Shown here in pieces: positions 10,319 through 28,329 of a stretch of DNA of 64,000 bases; positions within the stretch are counted from its first letter, which is position 1, and each line of letters opens with the position of its first letter. Origin of the DNA: an uncultured Planctomycetota bacterium (GTDB taxonomy: Bacteria > Planctomycetota > Planctomycetia > Isosphaerales > Isosphaeraceae). The notes beneath the pieces were generated by a model that was not told the DNA's origin, did no database searches, and worked only from the letters and a program-made list of their open reading frames with translations. The stretch covers positions 6,048,001 through 6,112,000 of the forward strand of contig CAVTTN010000002.1 of NCBI GenBank assembly GCA_963737655.1, given 5' to 3'. Position numbers and translations under genes: made by a program.

Positions 10319-11866
10319 TCACGGGCGCAGTTCCCAGGCGTCGAGCGACCGGAGCCGGGCCGGGCCTCCGGTCGCGAAGAGCTCGACCCCGAGGCTGGCG
10401 GGCGCGGGGAAGACCTGATCGGTCAGGACGGCCCGGCCGCCGTCGGCGAACACCTCGACCGAGGTGGCGTCGAGGACGACGTGGAGCTGCACCGGACCCT
10501 GGAATGTGCCCGGGGCGAGGCTCGCGGAGTGGCGGCCGGCGAAGTGCGGGCTGAAGCCGACGGCCCCGGAGCGCGTCCGGTCCACGAACACCGTGCCCGA
10601 GCGGCGATCGAACCCGATCGCGGTCTCCTCGCCGTTTCCGCAGCGGACCTTGATCCCGAATTCCCCGGCATCGCCGCCGTCGAACTCGGCGAGGATCTCC
10701 ATCGAGGCCCCCGCGATGCCGTCCCCTCGAAGGGACGTCGATCCGGCGGGCATCGGGCGGGCGGCGAGGGCGTGGTGGTCGCGCCGGAGCGTCTTCAAGG
10801 TCTCCACCGGGGCCTGGACGATGCGGAAACCGTCGTCCGTCTTGCGGAGCGAGACGGTCCGGGGGATCGTCATGGCCCCTCGCCAGGGCGCGGTCGGGAT
10901 CTCGTTGGCGTATTGCCAGTTGTTCATCCAGGCGATCCAGACCGGGCGAGCCCCGGGGGCGTCGTTCCAGGTCTGCGAGGCGTAAAAATCCTTGCCGAAG
11001 TCGATCCAGAGGGGATCGTCGGTCTTCCCCTCGGCGCGGAATGACGTGCCGTCGAACCGGCCGACGAAGTACTGGCCGCCCGAGCCGCCGAACGGCGCGC
11101 CGTCATTGACATCGACCTTGAGGACCCATCGGGTCTCGCCGTCGTCGCCGTTTTCCACGGGGGCCTCGAACAGCTCGGGACATTCCCAGACGCCCTTGGC
11201 GGAGCCGGCGGGGCCGAAGTCGCCGAGCGGCTCCCAGGCCTTGAGGTCCTTCGAGCCCCAGAGGCGGACCTTGCGATCGTCGGCCAGGACGGTGGCCATG
11301 ATCCAGCGATCGGTCGGCCCGTGGCGGAAGACCTTGGGGTCGCGGAACGAGTTGGAGTGGAGGTCGAGCACGGGGTTGCCGGGGAACTTCGCCCAGGTCC
11401 GGCCGCGATCGGTGCTGGAGGCGAGGTTCTGCGTCTGCGTCTTGTGGCCGTCTCCGGTGTAGACGGCGACCATCGGCGGAGAGTCCGGGCGGCCGAGGCC
11501 CGAGGTGTTCTTCGCGTCGAAGACCGCGCTGCCGGAGAAGATCATGATGCCGTCCTGCTCCCGGAGGGCGATGGGAAGATGTTCCCATCGCAGGAGGTCG
11601 CGGCTGACGGCGTGGCCCCAGCTCATGTGGCCCCAGCGGTCTCCCTCGGGGTTGTGCTGGTAGAACAGGTGGTACTCGCCATCGAGGAAGACCAGCCCGT
11701 TGGGGTCGTTGATGAAGTTTCGGGGGGGCGTGAAGTGGAACCGAGGGCGAGGGCCTTCGGGGCCGTCGGCCCGGGCGAGGGGGCCGGCCCCGAGGCCGAT
11801 CGCGGCGAAACAGGCGGCGAGGATCGCGGTGCGCATGAGGTGTTTCCCCGGGGTTCGAAGGCTCAT
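10319..11866 (-). CDS. Secreted GH32 beta-fructosidase/levanase (start 11866 or 11836)
   Basis: FINDPNG, WGHAVS, FRDPKV and WECPEL catalytic motifs, a C-terminal beta-sandwich (SVEVFADGG) and signal peptide MRTAILAACFAAIGLGAGPLARA. Confidence 0.95.
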   Translation of the reverse strand: MSLRTPGKHLMRTAILAACFAAIGLGAGPLARADGPEGPRPRFHFTPPRNFINDPNGLVFLDGEYHLFYQHNPEGDRWGHMSWGHAVSRDLLRWEHLPIALREQDGIMIFSGSAVFDAKNTSGLGRPDSPPMVAVYTGDGHKTQTQNLASSTDRGRTWAKFPGNPVLDLHSNSFRDPKVFRHGPTDRWIMATVLADDRKVRLWGSKDLKAWEPLGDFGPAGSAKGVWECPELFEAPVENGDDGETRWVLKVDVNDGAPFGGSGGQYFVGRFDGTSFRAEGKTDDPLWIDFGKDFYASQTWNDAPGARPVWIAWMNNWQYANEIPTAPWRGAMTIPRTVSLRKTDDGFRIVQAPVETLKTLRRDHHALAARPMPAGSTSLRGDGIAGASMEILAEFDGGDAGEFGIKVRCGNGEETAIGFDRRSGTVFVDRTRSGAVGFSPHFAGRHSASLAPGTFQGPVQLHVVLDATSVEVFADGGRAVLTDQVFPAPASLGVELFATGGPARLRSLDAWELRP

Positions 11867-13270
11867 TCGATGCCCAGCGTCTTCTGGATCTCTTCGAGGG
11901 GGACGCCCTTGGTCTCGGGCATCAGGAACAGGGCCCACAGCAGTTGCAGGGCCATCATCGCCGCGTAGAAGGCGAAGGCATGGCCGCCGGAGCTCCGGGC
12001 GATCAGGGGGAACGTCCAGGTGATCAGGGCGGCCATGACCCAGTGAGTCGTGCTCCCCAGGGCCTGCCCCTTGGCGCGGACGCGGTTGGGGAAGATCTCG
12101 CTGATGAACACCCAGATCACCGCCCCCTGGCCGAACGCATGGGCCGCGATGAACAGGAGCAGGCCCCCGAGGACGACCGCCGAACCCGTCGCGGTGAACT
12201 CGGTCCCATACGTGTAGAAGGCCCACGCCGTCGCCCCCAGGCTGACGAGGTAGCCGGCCGAGCCGATCAGGATCAGCTTGCGACGGCCGATCCGGTCGAT
12301 CACCGTCATGGCCAGCATCGTGAACAGGAGGTTCGTCCCGCCCACGGCCACGGATTGCAGCAACGCCGAGTCCTTGCCCGCGCCGGCCATCTCGAAAATC
12401 TTCGGCGGCGTAATACATGAGCGCGTTGATCCCCGAGAGTTGATTGAACATCGCGATGGCCACGGCCAGGAAGATCGGCCGGCGATACTCCCATCGGAAC
12501 AGGGAGTCCGACCCGTGATGGTGCGAGAGGTCGAGCGATCGCCGGATGTCCTCGACCTCCTCGTCGATCCCCGGGCCATCGACGCCCAGCCTCGCCAGGA
12601 CGGCCCTGGCCTCCTCGACCCGGCCTCGGGCCATCAGCCATCGGGGGCTTTCCGGGGTGGGGAACAGCAGGAGGAAGAACGCGGCCGACGGGATGACCTG
12701 GACGCCCAGCATCCATCGCCATTCCGACGCGCCCAGATTCAGTCGCGCGATCAAGTAATTCGACAGGAACGCGACCAGGATGCCCAGGACGACGTTGAAT
12801 TGCTGGGCCGCCACCAGCCGGCCGCGCACCCTCGCCGGGGAGATCTCCGCGATGTACAGCGGCGAGACGACCGAGGCCCCGCCGACGGCGAGCCCTCCCA
12901 GGGCGCGGAAGGCCAGGAACGAATACCAGTCCCACGCCAGGGCGCTGCCCAGGGCCGAGACGAAATAGAGGACCGCCAGGACCATCAGGGCCTTCTTCCG
13001 GCCCCACGAATCGGCGGGCTTTCCCGCGAAGATCGAGCCGACGATGGTGCCGACCAGGGCGATGGCGACGGTGATCCCCAGGAGGTTTTCGCTCAGATGA
13101 TACGTCGTCTTGATCGCCTCGGTGGTGCCCGAGATCACGGCCGTGTCGAAGCCGAACAGGAGGCCGCCGAGGGCCGCCACGATCGCGCTGCCGATCAGGA
13201 CCGGGGTGACCGAGACCCGGGCCGGGGGCCGGGTCGCGTCCCCGGCCGGTCGAACGTCGGTGGGAATCAC
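11863..13270 (-). CDS. Sugar porter family MFS transporter; apparent frameshift near 12405
   Basis: GGLLFGFDTAVISG, DSWGRK, YIAEISP, PESPRWL, NQLSGIN, IDRIGRR and PETKG, spread over two frames that join at ~12405 (YYA/PKIFEMAG). Confidence 0.93.
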
Positions 13271-14172
13271 GGGAGGGCCTCCGTCTCGGGGTCCGGGGGG
13301 AACTTCAACGCATCGGGCAGGGTGGGCGTGCCCCCGGGCTGGGAGCAGACGAACGCGGCGACCTCGTTGGCATGGCGGTTGATCTCGTGGAGAGGGCGAC
13401 CGAGCAGGAGGCCGACGACCAGGGCCGCCGTGAAGGCGTCGCCGGCGCCGATCGTGTCGCGGACCGAGACGGCCGAGCCCGGATGCTCGGACCATTCGCC
13501 GCCGGACCGCAGCAGGCTGCCGTGGGGGCCTCTCGTCAGCGCCACGAGCGACAGGCCGAAGCGGTCGGCCAGCTCGGTCATCGCGGTTTTCGGGTCCGCC
13601 GAGAGGCCGAACATCGCCGCGAGCTCGGGCAATTCCTGGTCGTTGAGCTTCAGGGCGCTGGCCAGCTCCAGGGACTCGGCGATCACGTCGCGATCGACGA
13701 ACGGGGGGCGGAGGTTCACGTCGAGGAGGCGCAGGGCCCCGGGTCGGCTGGCCGAGACGATCGCCCGGATCGCCGATCGCGACGGCCCTTCGCGTTGCGA
13801 GAGGCTGCCGAAGCAGACCGCCCCGGCCCGGGCCGCGCGATCGAGGGCCGCCGGGCCCGCCTCGATCCGGTCCCAGGCGACGTGCTCCCGGATCGTGAAT
13901 CGCGGCTGGCCGTCGGCGGCGAGCTCGACGTCGACGGTCCCGGTGGGGAGCTCGGGATCGACCTGGACCGTCTCGGTCGGGAGGCCGAGCCCTCGGAATC
14001 GTTCCAGGACCTCGCGCCCCAGGGGATCGGCGCCGACCCGGGTGATCAGCGCCGCGTCGGCGCCCAGCGATCGGCATTGATACGTGAAATTGGCCGGTGC
14101 GCCGCCGAGCTGCTTGCCCGTCGGCAGCAGATCCCAGAGCACTTCGCCCACGGCGAGGATCGGAGGACTCAT
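13267..14172 (-). CDS. PfkB family carbohydrate kinase, probably fructokinase
   Basis: GEVLWD, GGAPANF, DVNLRPP and DTIGAGDAF motifs; first gene of the operon with the sugar porter and GH32. Confidence 0.93.
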   Translation of the reverse strand: MSPPILAVGEVLWDLLPTGKQLGGAPANFTYQCRSLGADAALITRVGADPLGREVLERFRGLGLPTETVQVDPELPTGTVDVELAADGQPRFTIREHVAWDRIEAGPAALDRAARAGAVCFGSLSQREGPSRSAIRAIVSASRPGALRLLDVNLRPPFVDRDVIAESLELASALKLNDQELPELAAMFGLSADPKTAMTELADRFGLSLVALTRGPHGSLLRSGGEWSEHPGSAVSVRDTIGAGDAFTAALVVGLLLGRPLHEINRHANEVAAFVCSQPGGTPTLPDALKFPPDPETEALP

Positions 14173-17875: not shown

Positions 17876-20800
17876 ATGAGCAAGTCGTCGCGGAAGAGGA
17901 ACCACGGCCGGATGGCCTGGCGGAGGCGGCCCGCCGCCCTCCCCGACCGGGCCTTCCGGCCCTCGCCGGTCGATCGGCTGGAGGACCGAACCGTCCCGTC
18001 GCCGGTGGTCGGCGGCCTCCACCTGCTCCACGACACGGGCGTGTCCGGCTCCGACGGGATCACGACGGACCCCACGATCGCGGGGACCGTGACGAACGGG
18101 GGCGCCCGCGTCGATGGGCTGACGGTCCAGGTCGATGTCAACGGCGACGGCCAGGCCGACGGCACGACGGCGACGGACAGCGCCGGGGCGTTCGTCTTCG
18201 ACCCGTCGAGCCTGGACCTCGCGCCCGGCACCGTCCACGTCTCGGCCCGCGCCGGGGCGTTCGACGCGACCCAGGACGCGACGGTGTACGGGGCCTGGAC
18301 GAACCTGAGCTTCACCCTGGAGGCGCCCGACCCCCCGCCGGTGGTCGCCTCGCTCGGCCTCCTGAACGACTCGGGGCCCCGGACGGCGTGACCTTCGACC
18401 CGACGCTCACCGGGGTCGTCACCGACGGGGCGACGGCCTCGGGCCTGCCGGTCCAGGTCGACACCAACGGCGACGGCTACGCCGACGGCAACGCGACGAC
18501 CGACGCCAACGGCGGCTTCACCTGGACGCCGACTCGCCTGACCCCGGGCCGGTGACCGTCGAGGCGAGGGCGGGGGCCTACGATCCGGTCCAGTCGGCCT
18601 GGGTCTACGGGGACTGGAGGACGTTCAGCTTCACCCTGGCCGCGCCGACGCGCCCCCGGTGATCCCCTCGCTCTCCCTGCTCCACGACACGGGCTCGTCG
18701 CCGTACGACCGGATCACGTCCGACCCGAGGGTCACCGGCTCGGTGACCAACGACGGGCCGACCTCGGGCCTGACCGTGGAGTTCGACCAGAACGGCGACG
18801 GCCAGGCCGACGGCACCGCGACGACCGACGCCCAGGGGAACTTTATCGACCTGCCCTCGGGCCTGTCCCCCGGCCCGGTGACGATCCGGGCCCGGCCCAC
18901 CGAGTACGATTCGGTGCTCGGGGCGGTCCAGGACGGGGCCTGGGTCTCCCTGAGCTTCACCCTGGTCGCCAACACGGGCCCGGTGGTCACGTCGCTGGTC
19001 CTGGCCGATGACAACGGGGCGTCGTCCACCGACGGCATCACGTCCGACCCGACGGTCAAGGGGAGCGTCACGGACCCCGACGGCGCCTCGGGCCTGACCG
19101 TCGAGGTCGACGAGAACGGGGACGGCCAGCCGGACGGGACGGCGACGACCGACTCTCAGGGGAATTTCACGTTCGTCCCGCGAGGGCTCGCCCCGGGGCC
19201 GCAGACGGTCCGGGCCCGGGCCATCGCCCACGACTCGGCGGACGGTCGCGACCTGACGTCCGACTGGGTCGCCGTCAGCTTCACCCTCCTGGACCACGTC
19301 AAGGCCGCGCCGACGCTCGCCTCGATCGCCCTGCTCGACGACACCGGCACCTCGGCCTCGGACCTGGTGACGACCGACCCGAGGATCGCCGCCTCGGTCA
19401 CGAGCCAGGAGGCGGGCATCTCCGGCCTGGCCGTCGAGTTCGACACCAATCATGACGGCGTCCCGGACGCCTCCGTCCTGGCCGACGCGACCGGGGCCCT
19501 GACGTACAATCCGCTCTGGGCCCGGCCCGGGACCGTCACGTTGCAGGCCCGAGCCAAGGGCTACGACAGCGACCAGTCGGCCGAGCTGTACGGCGCGTGG
19601 ACGAGCTTCAGCTTCACCCTCCAGTCCAATCCGCAGGCGGCGCCGGTGGTCGCGGGCCTGGCCTTGCTCGATGACACCGGGGCGTCCTCGACCGACAACG
19701 TGACGGCCGACCCGGCGTTCGGCGGGGCGGTCACGCAGAACGGGACGGCCTCGGCCGGGCTGACGGTGGAGATCGACACCAACGGCGACGGGACGCCCGA
19801 CGCCACGGCCACGACCGACTCCGGCGGCCACTTCGCCCTCTCGCCGGCCGGGCTGGCGGCCGGCCCGGTGACGGTCCGGGCCCGGGGCAAGGCGTACGAC
19901 TACGGCCTGGGGGCCTACGTCACGGGCTCCTGGGCGTCGCTGTCCTTCACCTTGACGACGGCCTCGCCCCCGGCGATCACGACGCTCGGCCTGGCCAACG
20001 ACAACGGCGTGTCGGCGACCGACAAGATCACCAGCGACCCGTCGATCGCCGGGGTGGCCTCCTCGGGCACGAACGGCGGCTCGGGCCTGACGATCGAATA
20101 CGACACCAACGGCGACGGCCAGGCGGACGGCTCGGCCCCGGCCGACTCCCAGGGCCGGTTCAGCTTCACGCCGGCCCAACGCCCGGCCGACGGCCCGGTC
20201 ACGATCCAGGCCCGGGCCAAGTCCTGGGACGACACGCAGCAGGCCTGGATCGTCGGCTCCTGGACGCCCTTCTCGTTCACGCTGGTCGCCCCGGCCGCGC
20301 CGACGATCCAGGCGCTCGGCCTGGTCAACGACGACGGGACGTCGTCCACGGACAAGGTGACGAGCGACCCGCGAATCCAGGGGACGGTCCGGGCCGACGG
20401 CTCCCCGGCGGGGCTGCTCATCCAGGTGGACACGACGGGCTCGGGGGTCGCCACGGGCACGGCCCGGACCGACGGCCAGGGCGGGTTCGTGTACGACCCG
20501 AGGGACCTCAAGCCGGGCGCCCACACCGTCCAGGTCCGCGCCGGGGCCTACGATCCCGACACCAAGGCGTACCTGTACGGGGCCTGGGCCCCGTTCAGCT
20601 TCACCCTGACCACCGGCTCGTCCTCCGCGCCGTCGGTGACCGGCCTGGCGCTGCTCAGCACCGGCGGATCGGGCGGGACCGGCGGCTCGGGCGGCAAGGG
20701 CGGGCTGGGCGCGCCGGGGTCGGGCCCGATGTACGGCCCCCCCGGCTCGACCTCCACCAGCGACCCGACCGTGACCGGGACCGTCACCAACGGCGGGGGG

Positions 20801-23800
20801 AGCGTCGATCACCTGACCGTCGAGTTCGACACCAACAACGACGGCTCGCCCGACGGCTCGACGACGACCGACGCCCGGGGCAACTTCACCTACCGCCCGC
20901 CGCTGACCACGGCCGGCCAGGTGACGATCCAGGCCCGGGCGAAGGTCTGGAGCTACTCGCAGTCGGCCTACGTGACGGGCGCGTGGGCCTCGATCTCGTT
21001 CTCCTATTCGCCGAGCGGCTCGGCGAGCAACCCGGGCGTCAACGGGGCCCTGCCCGGGTCGGGGAGCGAGGTCGCCGCGTCCGACGCGGCGTATCGCTCG
21101 TCGGTGGCCCAGGGCGGCTCGACCTACGACGCGAACGTCGGCGCCTCGGGATCGACGGCCAACGGCGCCGCGGCCCTGGGCGTGGGGAGCTACACCCCCC
21201 TGAACAGCCAGGGCAACGCCTCGACGACCTCGGGCACGCCGGACCTCAGCCCGACCTTCAGCGTGAGCTCGCCCTCGTCCTCGCCGGCCCCGAAGACCTA
21301 CAACAACACGCTGACCACGAACGACTCGCCGACGACCCCCACCGGCTCCGCGACCCGCTCGGAGACCGAGACGATCACCTACAACCTGACCGCCTCGGGC
21401 GGCTCCTTCACCCTCGACGTGACGATCGACCTGAGCTTCTCCTACACCGAGAAGGGGGATTACGCGGTCTCGGCCAACGGCGAGACGGATAATCACTCCT
21501 ACATCATCAACGTCAGCGGCAAGTACAAGCTGGTGCTCCACGAGTCCGGGACCTACTCGACGACGGGCCCGGGGGTGACCGAGTCCGGCTCGCTCTCCGC
21601 GACCGAGACCGGCTCGTACAGCTCGGACTACATCGACACGGACAACTACTCGCTGAGTTCGACCGGGAGCTCGGGCGGGGGGACGTCCACGACCGACCTC
21701 AAGGGGGGCTACAGCTTCTCCTACGGGGAGTCGGGGAGCTTCAGCGCCGGGGGCGGCCATTCCGGCGTGACGGACGGCTACACGCTCTCCGGCTCGGACG
21801 ACTTCTCCTATTCCGGGACCGATTCGGGCCATTTCTCGTTCTCGTCGTCCGGCGGCGGGGGCTCCTCCTCGTCCAGCGGGACGTATAGCGACGGCGCCTC
21901 GGGCTCCTACGGGGACAGCTACGGCGATTCGGGCCAGTACTCGGCCAGCGATTCGGCCTACACGTTCACCGGCTCCTACACCTACGGCGAGGGGGGCGGC
22001 GACTCCACGACCGAGAGCGACTCCGGAGGCTCGACCTGGAGCGCCTCGGGCGACAGCGGGTCGGACAGCTCGACGTACACCGACGCCTACAACCAGAACT
22101 ACACCTACGGCGAGGGCGGCTCCTACACCGTCACCGACAAGACCCAGGTCGTCTCGGCCAGCGCCCGGCTGACCGCCCACGCCGACGAGACGATGGGCCT
22201 CCAGGGGGGCGATTCCTACTCGGTCGTGGAGGGCCAGGACAAGTACACCGGCTCGGTCGGCTACTCGTCGTCCGGGACGTACTCCGAGGACGCCACCGCC
22301 TCGGCGTCGGAAACGATCAACGGCGCGAGCACGACCGTCTCGGGCCGCACCTCGGTCGAGGCGACGGGGGGCTCGACCGACTCCTCGCAGGACTCGGGGA
22401 CCTACCTCGTCGTCGGGGCCTCCAGCGGCAACAGCGGGACGTATCACGACTCCGACAGCCAGTCCGGGAGCTACGACGGCAAGATCTCCGAGAGCTTCAC
22501 CGACGCCAATGGCGCCGTGAACGCCAGCGGGACGTACAGCCTGGACGACGGCGGCACCGACACGTTCTCCAGCGGAGAGACCGGCCAGTACGCGGACTCG
22601 TCCTCGACCAGCAGCGACAGCGGCACCTTCACCACGGCGATCTCGGGGACGGACGCCTCGTCGGTCCATTACTCGTCCAGCTTCACGCAGACGCCCTCGG
22701 ACTTCTCGGTGACGGGGAGCTTCGCCACCAGCGATTCCGGGTCCGGCAGCGAGTCCTACTCCGAGAACGGCAACTATTCGAGCTCCTACTCCACCAGCAG
22801 CTACGACTACGGATACAGCTCGTCCTCGGGCTCGGACGTGGGCCACTTCACCGAGGCCCAGTCGGAGACCGAGAGCACCTCGGACTCCGATTCGGGCTCC
22901 TACGCCTTCGACGACGCGAATTTCAGCCTGACCCACAGCGTGAGCAATTCGGACTCCCTGGGCTCCTCGTTCTCGTACTCCGGCGGGGGCGACTTCACCG
23001 ACTCGACGACCGACGGCTCCGGCACCACGACGACCCGGGGCAGCTACACCAGCACCGAGCAAGGGACGGACGCCCTCTCGACGGGCCTCGCCGGGTCGGC
23101 CACCACGAACAACAACGCGTTCTCCTCCAGCTCCACGGCGACCCGCCACGACGCGACGACCGGCTCGGGCAGCGAGAGCGAGGCGGGGTCGTACTCGTCC
23201 AGCGTCACGACCAACGGGACGACCACGACGACCCAGGGCCAGTACGCGTCGTCCGACGGCGGATCGTCCTCGACGAGCGACCAGGACACGGCCCACTACG
23301 CCCTGAGCAACTCCTCATTCGGCGTGACCGGCTCGTACAACCATGCCGAGTCGGCCGGCGGGAGCTCGTCCTACCAGGATGCCGGGACCGTGACCGACTC
23401 GTCATCGAACGAGACGGACACCGACAACTACACGTATTCCGACGCCCAGACCGACGCGGAGACCTATTTCGACTCCGGCACCTACAGCCAGGGGTCGGCG
23501 TTCGTGAACGACGGCAACTCGGGCGCGACGACGATCCACGGCTCGATCGACTCGGAGACGCACTCCGGGACCTACTCCGGCACCGGGGGCTTCGACAGCT
23601 TCGGCTTCGGGACGACCAGCTACGGGGGGGATTACCAGACCAGCGACAACTCGTCCTCGACCTTCTCCTCGGGCGCCTCGGGGGCCTATCACAAGGACAA
23701 CGTGAACTCGACGACCTCCGGCTCGTTCGGGAGCTCCGAGGGGGCTCGTCGTCCTATTCCGACACGTTCCACGACCACTCCTCGACCTCGGGCGGCGGCA

Positions 23801-26363
23801 CCTCGACGAGCGGATCGACGACCACCACGACCCTGGACAGCGAGTCGGAGAACTCGAGCATCAGCGAGTCGGGGAACTACGGGTTCTCCTCCGGCGATTC
23901 GGGGACGTACTCGACCTCCAACGGCTATTCGCAGACCAACGGCAACTATGCGGACAGCTCGGCCGAGTCCGACACCTGGTCGACCGGCGGGTCGGGCAGC
24001 TCGTCCTCCTCGGCCGTGACCTCGACGTCGTACAACTACCCGGGTTCGTACGGGTACAGCGGCGGAGGAGGCGGGGGCAGCAGCACCATCAGCGACTCGA
24101 CCTCGAGCTCGGGGTCCGGCAGCGAGAGCGGCGATTCGAGCCTGACGACGACCGACCAGGGCTCGTACACGGCCTCGGCCTCGCCCACGTCGTCCAGCCG
24201 GGTCAGCGACGGCCATAATTCGGCGTCCGAGACGCGGTCGGCCCAGGCCAGCTCCTCGGGCGGGGGGACGACCTCGCATTCGTCCTCGGCCACCAACGGA
24301 GGGGGGAGCAGCTCGTCGGGCTGGACCAGCACCGGGCAGACCACCGCCTCGGCGAACACCAGCTTCGCCTACCAGGAGGCCAGCACCTACCACTCCGGCG
24401 ACGCCAACGCCTCGACCAACGGCACCTTCTCCTCGAGCTCGGGGACGAACCAGGCGAGCACGTTCTCCGGGACGTATCAGAGCGGTTCGTCTTCCAACTA
24501 CAGCAGCTCCTACAGCGGGGGGAGCAGCTCCAGCAACAGCCAGAACTCGTTCAACGCCTCGATCGCGCAGACCGGGACGGTGAGCTCGACCTACAGCGAC
24601 TCCGGCACGTTCGGCTCGAGCTCGTCGGGGAGCTGGACGAACGGCTCGTTCAGCAAGACGAACCGCCAGGTCAGCTCGGCGGCGTACGGCGATACGTCCA
24701 CCTATCAGAGCTCGTCGCATTCGAGCGACTCCTCGTCGTCCGAGGACGACTCGGGGGGCGGCGACGCGAGCACCTCGCTGACCCAGCAGCTCACGACGAG
24801 CTCGCGGAACTCCGCCACCTACTCCCAGGGGCCGGGCGGCAGCACCAACAGCGGGAGCGACAGCCTCAGCCACACCGGCAGCAACACCTACGGGGCCACC
24901 GCCCACAGCCACGACTCCCAGGGCTGGAGCAGCGACGGCGCCACCGGGACGAGCACCAATTCCTACAGCCATTCCGAGGGCTCCAGCGCCGGGCATTCGG
25001 ACTCCGCGTCCGACTCGTTCACCAACGGCGCGAGCACCGGCGACAACGCCTCGACCGACGTCTCCTCGAAGAGCTACGTCACCGACGGCAGCGGGAGCTG
25101 GTCCTACTCCTCCAGCAACGACAGCGGCAGCGGGAGCTCCTCGAACCATTCCGAGGGCAACTACACCGGCACCGGCGGGAGCTCGGCCCACTACACCCCG
25201 ACCGGCTCCAGCGGCGACTTCAGCGAGGACGAGGACAGCACGCAGAGCTCCAACAGCTCGGACAACGGCACCTCCACCTCGATCAACCCGCCGTCGTTCG
25301 ACAGCTACATCTTCCAATCGACCTACAACGACCACTCGACGTACCAGGCCTCGGGCACCCTGAACAACAACACGCCCGACGGCACGTTCTCGCAGACCAC
25401 CAGCGGCCTGGCGACCTACTCCGGCGCCGGGGTCAGCGTGAGCCCGGCCGGGACGTTCCCCTGGTCGTTCTCCTTCGCGATCCCGCACTACAACGAGATC
25501 GACGGCAAGATCACGGCCGAGGGGCGGGAGGCCGGCGCGTCCTGGCTCGACGACCTCCAGACGATCCTGGACGTCGCCGGGATGATCCTCCCGTTCACCC
25601 CGGCGGCGGAGTTCGCCCCGGTCGTCGACGAGCTGAACGCCGGGATCTCGTTCCTCCGGGGCAACTACCAGGACGCGGCCCTGCGCGCGACCTTCGGCGC
25701 GATCCCGCTCCTGGGCAAGGCGGGCGGGGCGGCCCAACTGGCCGAGGACGGGAGCAAGATCACCTCGGGCCTGGCGAACCTCGGCGAGAAGCTCGCGCCG
25801 ATCGGCCAGGCGGGCCGCGTGATCCTCGGCGGGGTCGGCATCTACTCCGGCCTCGGCGACATCCGCGAGGGCCTGACCCGCGTGGGCGAAGGCGACTGGA
25901 TGGGCCTCTGGCAGGTCGCCCGCGGCACTCTGGCGCCTACCACGGCATCAGCTCGATCGCCCACGTGACCAACGAGATCGGCCTGTTCAACCTCTGCGGG
26001 ACCCCCCTGGGCGACGCCTTCGGCATCGGCAACTGCTTCGTGGCCGGCACCCGAGTCGTCCTGGCCGACGACTCCGAGACGGTCCTGCTCGCCGCCCTCC
26101 CCGGCCTGGACGCCGACGCCGACGCCGACCTCCAGGCCGACCTCCTCGAAACCGTCCGGGTGCCGCTGGGGATCACCTGCGTCGTCCTCGGCGCGGGCCT
26201 CGGCGGCCTCTGGCTCTACCGGGACCTCCAGGAGAGGCGACGACGCCGGAGGGCCCTGTTCCTCGACCTCGCCATCGACGACCACTTCGGCCCGGACGAC
26301 CCGGACGACCCGACCCTCGACGACCTCGCCGCCGAGCCTCGCGGCCTCCTCGGCATCGCCTGA
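17876..26363 (+). CDS. Giant (~2,800 aa) exported toxin carrier: Planctomycete LEDR export motif, 9 Ig-like repeats, Ser/Gly/Thr/Tyr/Asp-rich stalk, pre-toxin TG-like helices, Hint N-terminal block and TM anchor; apparent frameshifts near 18380, 18550, 18655, 23745 and 25930
   Basis: RPSPVDRLEDRTVPS; ~105-aa repeats L-x2-D-x-G...DP-x3-G-x-V...D-x-NGDG...W-x3-SFTL; WLDDLQTILDVAGMILP...NAGISFLRGN; CFVAGTRVVLAD at 26034. The ORF-track pieces join seamlessly across single-base shifts. Confidence 0.85.
18003..21010 (+). repeat. Nine tandem bacterial Ig-like repeats, most with a DxNGDG Ca-binding-like loop
   Basis: Repeat starts near 18003, 18340, 18659, 18985, 19315, 19645, 19975, 20305 and 20635, read directly from the translations. 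Confidence 0.85.
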
Positions 26364-26423
26364 CGTCGTCCCGCCCGATCTCACGGACCCTCCGACATCG
26401 CACACCCCACCGAGGTGAGGACC

Positions 26424-27646
26424 ATGAAGACGCACACGACCCCCCGACGGCCCGGCGGCCTCTGGCTGGCGATCGGCTCCTTCGTCCTGACGGCGGCGGG
26501 CCTGGGGCTGCTCGCCCGGCCGGCGGCGCGGCCCGCCCCGGATCGCCCGAAGCTCGTCGGGCTGGCCCACCGGCCCGGTGCGGCCGAGGCGACCCCGCGG
26601 ACGCTGGACATCCAGTCGATCGCGCTGGGCCAGAGGGTCGTCGGCTCGAACCCCGAGCGCGACGCCTCCGCCCTGGAGGAGGCCGAGCCCGAGCCGTCCT
26701 CGTGGCGGGCCGTCCGGCTGAGGATGACCAAGGCGACCGGCAAGAGGCTCGACATCGCCCTGCTCCGGCCCCTCGAATGGCTCCGCTCGCGAGAGGCCCG
26801 GGTCGGCCGGACCGTCGAGCTGAACCTCCGGGAGCTCGGCGCGGCGGGCAAGGCGGAAGTCCTGGCGATCGAGCCGTGCCCGGAGATCCGGCCGGGGACC
26901 GGCCACGTCGTCACCGGCACCTTCGCCCACGAGCCCGACAACCGGCTCCTCAACGTCCGGGTCGAGGGCCAGGACGAGCCGATCGGCTGCACCGACAACC
27001 ACCCGTTCTGGTCCGAGGATCGAGGCCGGTTCCTCAAGGCGGGCGAGCTCCGGGCCGGGGACCGCGTCCGGACGCTCGCCGGGACCCGGAAAGTCGAGGC
27101 GGTCTCGCCCCGCCCGGCCGAGGCCCTGGTCTACAACATCGAGGTCCAGGCCGAGCACGTCTACCTCGTCTCCAACGCCGGGGTCCTCGTCCACAATGCC
27201 TACAACGAGGAGACCATCGAGGAGACCGAGGAGAACCGGGGCCTGACGTGGACCACGGAGAACACCGGCAAGGAGAGCCAGGCGAAGGCTTGGGAGGACG
27301 GGGCCACCGGGGCGAGGTATCGCATCTCCGACCACATGCGAGAAGTCCCGGCCTTGCGCTACGACAACGCCAACCCGCGCGGCAATAATTACGCCCGCTT
27401 CGATGGGTGGGGCCGGAGGAGCCCAACACGCTCATCGATCGGAAGTGGAACGTGACGACCAAGTCGGGGCAGGTCGCCAAATTCAGGAGCGGGCCCCTTG
27501 AAGCCCTCAGCCAGAACCCGGAATATCGTCTGAGGCTCGAGGTCCCGACGAACCGGGCGGCGACCGACGCCCGCCGGCTCCTCCGCTACGCGACCGGCAT
27601 GGATTCGCACCCTCAGATCGACATCGTGGTCGTCCCCCAAGAATGA
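26424..27646 (+). CDS. TM-anchored Hint-domain remainder fused to a C-terminal PD-(D/E)xK (REase-fold) toxin; apparent frameshift near 27408
   Basis: GAGG RBS and ATG 26424; TM LWLAIGSFVLTAAGLGLLA; IQSIALGQRV, CTDNHPFW, GELRAGDRV and VYNIEV..H.Y.V...GVLVHN; then RFDG/(V)GPEEPNTLIDRK across a G-run shift. Confidence 0.85.
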
Positions 27647-28329
27647 GCAAGGACAATCGAAGGATCTGGCTGGTCCTGCACTCGCGAGCCGAGGAGTCCG
27701 ACCCGGTCGAGCGGAAGCACGCCCGCTTCTTCGAGGGCTGCGAGTCCCTGCCCGCCCCCTGGGGCCCGGGGGGCCGCCCCTACCCCCCGGTCCCGCCCTT
27801 CTTGGGCGGGTCGACGGCGATCCTCTCCTGGACCAAATACCTCGGGGGGATCGCTCGACGGGCCCTGATCAGCTATCGATACCGGAGGCTTCTCCGGGAC
27901 GACGGACTCTCCGACGACTTAGTGACCATCGTCTTGGCGGCCTCCAGGATCGACTGGGATCTCCTCGCCAAGGCCGTGATCCCGACTTATCTGAGGGCCT
28001 TCGACGCCTATCTCGTGGAGGTGTTCGACGAATCCTCCTTCACCGAATCCGGAGGGAACTCCCGGGAGGCCTTCAATCCTCGCTCCGAGGTCCGAAAGCT
28101 TCGCATCATCAACTATTTCGATGCAGAACTCTGCCGGCGCACCTTCAAGGCCTCGCCCGGATCGCTCCTCCTCCTGGTCACGGACAAGGCGGCTCACGCC
28201 GAAATCATCAACGATGGCCTCTACCTGATCCCGGCCGATCCCGGCTCGCCCCCGGACCTGATCGACGGCGCGTGCCAGGCCTGTTACGAGGCCCTGATCG
28301 GGACGAATCCTCGAACGCGACTCGGATGA
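27643..28329 (+). CDS. Probable cognate immunity protein
   Basis: The ATG overlaps the toxin stop (ATGA 27643-27646); 228 aa; codon usage is visibly more AT-rich than the carrier. Position is the main evidence. Confidence 0.75.
   Translation: MSKDNRRIWLVLHSRAEESDPVERKHARFFEGCESLPAPWGPGGRPYPPVPPFLGGSTAILSWTKYLGGIARRALISYRYRRLLRDDGLSDDLVTIVLAASRIDWDLLAKAVIPTYLRAFDAYLVEVFDESSFTESGGNSREAFNPRSEVRKLRIINYFDAELCRRTFKASPGSLLLLVTDKAAHAEIINDGLYLIPADPGSPPDLIDGACQACYEALIGTNPRTRLG

Follow-up and report, generated by a model that had tools for sequence, protein, structure and literature searches.

The 64,000-nucleotide stretch analysed here (the window; positions 6,048,001 to 6,112,000 of contig CAVTTN010000002.1, assembly GCA_963737655.1, an uncultured Planctomycetota bacterium of the Isosphaeraceae) contained a polymorphic toxin locus whose Hint (intein-like) domain is divided between two genes by a pair of predicted transmembrane (TM) helices. 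The upstream gene encodes a giant carrier ending with the first twelve residues of the Hint domain (block A, or IntN), an acidic spacer, the helix TM1 and a run of arginines before a TGA codon. The downstream open reading frame (ORF B) begins with a Met, the motif PRRP (26442) and the helix TM2, continues with the rest of the Hint domain (IntC) and finishes with a toxin domain; a putative immunity gene follows. The landmarks of IntC were the second strand IQSIALGQRV (26610), the block B motif TDNH within TDNHPFW (26991), VYNIEV (27129), HVY (27156) and the terminal His-Asn (27192-27197), and the next residue is Ala. Through translation, we re-found each element of the initial annotation at the position given there (Table 1).

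Cys1, Phe2 and Thr6 of block A were invariant (27 of 27), as were H139, H191, H203 and N204 of IntC in 54 sequences, with T136 kept in at least 90%. The second strand begins 180 codons after the 12-residue block A, and the wide separation remarked on initially is real; in members of this Hint subfamily that lack TM helices (L110, L118 and L180), block A lies only 16-27 codons before that strand. Three other TM-less relatives (L120, L128 and L129) have a non-hydrophobic spacer of 40-50 codons between block A and the second strand, and these forms compose a series from a short gap through a non-hydrophobic spacer to the TM hairpin. The same genome also contains four paralogues of more than 600 residues (L003-L006; G000:C2 near 103036, 2439878, 2807568 and 4779755), with a helical N-part and a contiguous PT-HINT ending in HD or HN, a short tail and no toxin; their homologues are seemingly widespread in the family.

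The 60-nt spacer between the TGA and the ATG of ORF B reads as non-coding. The GC content at third codon positions (GC3) of its 20 codons was 0.70 in frame and 0.68 in the other two frames, lower than the 0.95-0.96 of both ORFs (binomial p=3e-4); since a miscalled stop would keep the coding pattern, the TGA is likely real. As for the quality of the assembly, rpoB was intact, but rpoC matched in two frames (G000:C2:6635601-6639726), an apparent frameshift which indicates that the assembly has indel errors; in the window, five frameshifts were found in the carrier and one in the toxin gene. The same genome contained a second split Hint locus interrupted by TM helices (G000:C2:1859116-1861560; L251:14117-16560), in which a 1,500-codon carrier with block A, TM1 and a basic tail ends at a stop; next come a Met-TM2-Hint gene, which uses another frame, and a Met-TM2-Hint cassette. 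Its split is a frame change and its Hint is a classic PT-HINT without the insertion seen in the window, which makes it a different subtype; cross-talk between the two loci is possible.

The Hint subfamily of the window was present in 68 of the 401 genomes of the class, and a profile of block A, TM1 and the basic cluster matched 36 of the 401 and 196 protein representatives, so the arrangement does not come from chance. Among 401 genomes of the phylum (14 candidates per genome scored), the block A-TM1 profile matched five, all of the same class. Loci labelled Chromatiales and Kuenenia are possibly mis-binned and were set aside. After de-duplication, the fetched loci gave 62 distinct block A-TM1 matches. 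We left out L095, in which the first Hint decays beyond TM2, and six others for which the retrieved DNA contained no Hint end. Of the remaining 55 loci, 51 were classified by script and four by eye (three split, one contiguous). Thirty-four of the 51 were contiguous in one ORF and 17 were split. The alternative kept in the initial annotation, one chain whose Hint contains a TM hairpin, thus also exists and is the commoner state.

All 17 breaks were located between TM1 and TM2 (loop mean 86 codons) and none between TM2 and the His-Asn (mean 252 codons); the product of the loop fractions was 5e-11, with kin not independent and L095 excluded. Of the 17 split loci, 16 had an in-frame ATG within 25 codons of TM2, against 8 of the 34 contiguous ones (p=2e-6, kin again not independent); an ATG with a Shine-Dalgarno (SD) match of at least 4 nt was present in 13 of 17 against 5 of 34, compared with 36 of 752 control internal ATGs. 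On a 33-row tree of classified loci ten state changes were needed, at least seven of them forced by supported branches. Two genomes assembled as single contigs (G182 and G196) and one complete record (L166) contained split loci, and open carrier frames of 1,100-3,900 codons lay upstream of many splits. Of the cultured hosts, Kolteria novifilia Pan216 (L165) has a contiguous locus accompanied by a cassette and Gemmata algarum JC673 (L177) a split one. Hold-out loci outside profile building comprised 12 contiguous and two split with ATG, the exceptions being one loop frameshift without ATG, one stop inside the Hint and one carrier without a Hint within 1.5 kb. Among 150 protein representatives, 81 ended in the loop, 43 were contiguous, 18 ended later and 8 lacked Cys-Phe; contig truncation biases these ends, so they lend weak support only. 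With 16 other split loci having unrelated stops and frames, ATG before TM2 and complete genomes among them, the natural split first suggested for the window was supported. In one locus (L363, G323:C286) the carrier ends with block A-TM1 and no Hint C-part was found in the next 1.5 kb, making it a candidate for obligatory supply in trans.

TM1 started 18-48 residues after Cys1 in the 51 loci. Lys plus Arg averaged 0.8 before and 6.0 after TM1, being higher after it in 51 of 51 loci; around TM2 the means were 3.3 before and 1.1 after, higher before in 40 of 51 and lower in six. According to the positive-inside rule the basic flank of a TM helix is the cytoplasmic side, by which the loop is predicted to be cytoplasmic and both Hint pieces are predicted to face outwards. 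The charge counts agreed with the topology proposed initially at TM1 in every locus and at TM2 in 40; the TM2 of the window itself belongs to the six reversed cases (3 before, 4 after). As the loop would be in the cytoplasm with both Hint pieces outside, it need not be continuous. TM2 contained Cys in 32 of the 51 primary loci (TM1 in 13) and TM1 contained GxxG or GxxxG in 31 (TM2 in 13), which may reflect helix packing.

In the AlphaFold (AF2) model of a contiguous homologue, L046, the Hint part was predicted with confidence, both helices were formed and the loop came out disordered (mean pLDDT 68). The Hint closes around both helices and the loop, and from block A to Asn it aligned with 2LWY, a bacterial intein-like (BIL) domain (Z 17.2, root-mean-square deviation 1.8, 134 residues). 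When a 34-residue block-A peptide of the window was modelled in complex with its own IntC, the score was 0.87, versus 0.01 for the best of three controls; the runs had at least 78% of contacts in common and a partner pLDDT of at least 57, and contacts included the region of T136, H139, H203 and N204. Of the solved pairs, 116 of 157 attained the mark applied, and of the mismatched pairs 2 of 215. The complex model indicates compatibility and not binding, because a pass is to be expected from pieces that resemble solved Hints, as the two parts of a known fold tend to do; at the level of models, the proposed complementation of the two Hint halves was supported. A structure search with the 70-residue insertion gave no clear match (best Z 4.4); inteins, with weak matches to intein halves, made up 6 of 50 rows, so that a duplicated Hint half as its origin is a lead only.

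Hint C-parts without an upstream block A were found 79 times, of which 75 were intact and 69 carried TM2. The one-contig genome G239 had 22 PT-HINT matches and one detected carrier, a contiguous one. There, in all 14 full-length free modules examined, the second strand follows the ATG start at a distance of exactly 57 codons, and their upstream DNA is divergent and AT-rich. The ratio of nonsynonymous to synonymous substitution rates (dN/dS) was 0.17 in the Met-TM2 part and 0.16 in the Hint, indicating purifying selection. The twelve modules compared showed DNA identity of 65-78% to the detected carrier over at most 231 nt, or no detectable identity, and the distance between it and the free arrays is 30 kb to 1.6 Mb. 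By these sequence features the G239 modules appear to behave as expressed genes without block A. Behind the classic PT-HINT primaries of L082, L148 and L224 stand cassettes of the insertion subtype. For L148 and L224, the DNA identity between primary and cassette covers only about 150-200 nt around TM2, so that two Hint subtypes carry one TM2 module.

Table 1. Coordinates of the split Hint locus and adjoining features in the window
Feature	Position	Strand	Basis
Gene for the giant carrier (about 2,800 codons), broken into six pieces in the assembly	17876..26363	+	frames, GC3
RLEDRTV motif in the carrier N-terminus	17975..17995	+	
Hint block A (IntN), CFVAGTRVVLAD, starting Cys1-Phe-Val-Ala-Gly-Thr	26034..26069	+	conservation, docking model
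Acidic spacer from block A to TM1, predicted periplasmic tether	26070..26159	+	sequence
TM1, predicted C-terminal carrier anchor, N-out/C-in	26160..26219	+	Kyte-Doolittle 1.92
RRRRRR, positive-inside cluster	26235..26252	+	kept as basic cluster in homologues
TGA, carrier end inside predicted cytoplasmic loop	26361..26363	+	homologous loop breaks at 16 other loci
60-nt spacer, reads as non-coding, with GAGG ribosome-binding site (26417-26420)	26364..26423	+	GC3
ORF B start: Met (ATG 26424), then a basic N-region and TM2 (26460-26516), a predicted signal anchor oriented N-in	26424..26516	+	
Hint C-part (IntC)	26610..27197	+	PT-HINT (PF07591, above cut-off), E 4e-10
Beta-rich insertion of about 70 residues, specific to the Hint subfamily of the window	26685..26897	+	pLDDT 92 modelled alone
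C-terminal toxin domain, likely restriction-endonuclease fold, frameshift near 27415	27198..27643	+	Atlas lead only
Putative immunity gene; overlap with the toxin stop (ATGA)	27643..28329	+	position; role inferred from toxin-immunity gene order

The carrier of the window is arranged as a basic N-terminus, immunoglobulin (Ig)-like repeats with Big_13 matches, a Ser/Gly/Thr-rich region, a Gly/Ala-rich helical pre-toxin segment and block A-TM1. The RLEDRTV motif resembles Planc_extracel by eye, and a Pfam search of the window carrier N-terminus gave no match to that family; an LE.R motif of Planc_extracel-like appearance starts several carriers, with weak matches below the cut-off in two of six N-termini, or two of the five homologous ones. 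Between 21000 and 25400 about 1,450 codons are Ser/Gly/Thr/Tyr-rich low-complexity sequence without a Pfam match, and similar to it are the unannotated carriers L086, L117, L134 and L203. Nine of 14 homologous carrier pieces matched Ig, cadherin or RHS, and open carrier frames reached 13,571 codons; this length belongs to L095 (G137), where the carrier's own Hint decays after TM2 and an intact Met-TM2-Hint-toxin gene stands directly behind.

Seven of 40 tails after the His-Asn matched toxin families (AHH, LHH, WHH, GHH, EHHH, REase-9 and Ntox28), and one more matched GIY-YIG. The toxin domain of the window had no match in Pfam, NCBIfam or plasmids; Atlas values of 0.87-0.90 to Tox-REase and CDI nuclease clusters are a lead only. 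The putative immunity protein had no credible family match in Pfam or NCBIfam and no plasmid match. Behind the window locus we found no cassettes, which are present at homologous loci. No PT-TG was found before block A in the window, and only a match below the cut-off at the second locus of the genome. A promoter and terminator scan of the window locus revealed one weak site inside the toxin gene and no terminator. Elsewhere in the window, a GH32 domain and part of a sugar transporter share a single long ORF at 10319-14077 on the minus strand, probably a frameshift artefact.

On its sequence features the domain is an atypically split type-A BIL of a polymorphic toxin, and not a classical split intein, as it has no +1 nucleophile. 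With type-A BIL/PT-HINT domains (PF07591; Clostridium thermocellum BIL, PDB 2LWY) it shares Cys1, TxxH, the terminal His-Asn, a variable +1 residue, the fold and the position just before the toxin. However, the described ones are contiguous and soluble, whereas here a TM pair interrupts the domain behind block A, the gene is frequently split and the 70-residue insertion occurs in one subfamily. The large carrier and variable nuclease tips are as in polymorphic toxins (Rhs, CDI/Tps and Neisseria MafB with mafB-CT), and so are, at homologous loci, the toxin-immunity cassettes downstream, whose DNA is homologous to that of the primary. In the available text of PMC4524018, known cassettes are without secretion sequences and act by recombination; here, 69 of 79 have a TM helix and many have a start codon of their own.

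Naturally atypically split inteins such as VidaL and PolB16 have an IntN of 15-37 aa, 15 aa being the shortest natural one recorded in the part of PMC13014065 available. These inteins and the engineered 11-aa Ssp DnaX/DnaB splits (PMC3443213, also in part) resemble the present system in the very short N-fragment, the large C-fragment and the separate chains. The likeness to naturally split inteins would extend to two genes with complementary IntN and IntC, as sequence and models suggest, but split inteins use a +1 nucleophile, and here the window has Ala, with Ser or Thr in only 14 of 51 loci. The inteins named rebuild one fixed enzyme and are not known to carry membrane anchors, whereas the exteins here are a carrier and interchangeable toxins. 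Two TM segments are also known from toxins with PAAR or HINT, for which the available text of PMC3113570 proposes that the TM pair traffics the toxin to the membrane and HINT aids release; the TM pair there is a separate N-terminal domain, not described as inside the Hint, and that text mentions no split. In the literature covered, which excluded subscription journals, we found no TM-interrupted or split toxin Hint, though supplements such as the architecture lists of PMC3482391 could hold some. The known kind is the polymorphic toxin system with a type-A BIL; what appears to be new is the TM-interrupted, repeatedly split Hint.

Taken on balance, we lean modestly towards assembly of the domain on the inner membrane's outer face, excision, probably ligation by aminolysis, and loading of free modules in trans, as sequence comparison and models suggest. 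The carrier would be exported and held by TM1 with block A outside, and ORF B would be inserted N-in through TM2 with IntC and the toxin outside. Confined to two dimensions, block A would dock into IntC. Cys1 would then form a thioester, the Asn would cyclise and the freed toxin amine would attack the thioester, the aminolysis route proposed for type-A BILs (PMC4031507, in its available part). The carrier-toxin would depart, the Hint pieces remaining in the membrane, and toxins might also be supplied in trans by other TM2-IntC-toxin genes of the cell. Such supply would be possible because the loop is dispensable, as the 17 split and 34 contiguous loci indicate, with every break in the loop. 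Ligation is favoured, as we infer, because a toxin made separately would have no delivery protein if it were only cleaved. According to the part of PMC3443213 available, an engineered 11-residue IntN trans-splices, cross-reacts and works inside a near-complete intein, so each proposed step has chemical precedent.

Several observations weigh against this reading, and they are given here together with its alternatives. The main rival is release without ligation, because cleavage dominates in tested BILs: block A would dock and trigger N- and C-terminal cleavage, and carrier and toxin would travel non-covalently or separately. In the available parts of PMC4031507 and PMC7664689 cleavage products dominate for type-A BILs, and PMC3482391 and PMC3113570, likewise in part, describe the Hint domains of polymorphic toxins as release peptidases. 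The +1 residues of the 51 loci (A13 S9 N8 G5 T5 D4 K3 Q2 R1 V1) extend to all these loci the lack of Cys pointed out for the window (0 of 51), and 37 are without a nucleophile. Yet under release alone the toxin of split loci would have no covalent link to the carrier, and no conserved binding domain was seen beside the variable toxins. A disulfide tether, which we also considered, is not indicated, as junction-flanking cysteines do not co-occur (9/7/16/18, p=0.76, 50 loci). We regard release only as unlikely, though far from negligible. ORF B could also be autonomous, TM2 exporting an IntC-toxin that cleaves itself at Asn while block A only frees the carrier. The IntC of one engineered intein, Ssp DnaX, does self-cleave without IntN, but is suppressed by IntN (both from the available part of PMC3443213). 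The G239 arrays stand far from their carrier, and in G125 and the single-contig G176 no block A-TM1 carrier was found for the free modules, which favours autonomy or orphan islands there; in G176, however, block A could come from a contiguous Hint without TM helices. As ORF B stands directly behind block A-TM1 in all split primaries and Cys1, Phe2 and Thr6 are conserved, autonomy seems improbable to us.

It might further be argued that only the contiguous hairpin works, in cis, the split genes being pseudogenes or errors and the cassettes silent donors for recombination. The contiguous form is the majority state, and the assembly contains indels, including the apparent one in rpoC. L199 and L340, with loop breaks lacking an ATG, resemble plain errors; the hold-out L331 has its stop inside the Hint, L095 decays after TM2, and the window copy with its six frameshifts may itself be decaying. 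Only 38 of the 69 TM2-bearing cassettes have an ATG and 11 an SD match. In 10 of 12 compared loci the DNA identity between cassette and primary was 80-99% over 590-990 nt, mostly from the loop onward, so ordinary recombination, which operates in other polymorphic systems, also fits. Such an account has difficulty with breaks confined to the loop, with start codons and SD matches that go with the breaks, with a spacer that has lost the coding GC3, with the long open carriers ahead of many splits and with the low dN/dS of the free modules, and we give it very little credence. Scarcely credible is the idea that TM1 and the basic tail are a sortase-like sorting signal and TM2 a cleaved signal peptide, the halves meeting in soluble or surface-attached form. 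C-terminal sorting signals, such as PEP-CTERM and its kin, generally consist of a TM helix followed by a basic cluster, the layout of TM1 and its tail, and the N-region of TM2 is signal-like; but the carrier tail had no NCBIfam match (E 0.1) and both helices are internal in the contiguous forms.

Returning to assembly and ligation at the membrane, we might tentatively speculate, with rather less assurance than for that scheme itself, that the membrane-tethered split Hint splices any of many separate toxin modules onto one carrier, in the periplasm and without DNA recombination. In split loci the carrier could bear a toxin only through a covalent link, which makes the question of cleavage versus splicing in vivo directly testable there. 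For protein labelling, a natural IntN about 12 residues long and tolerant at the +1 position would also have its uses. If the speculation is true, a natural split intein-like domain would act outside the cytoplasm on membrane anchors, and toxin swapping by trans-splicing would be categorically new, toxins being exchanged by protein ligation and not by recombination; one carrier gene of 10-40 kb would then deliver a whole toxin arsenal.

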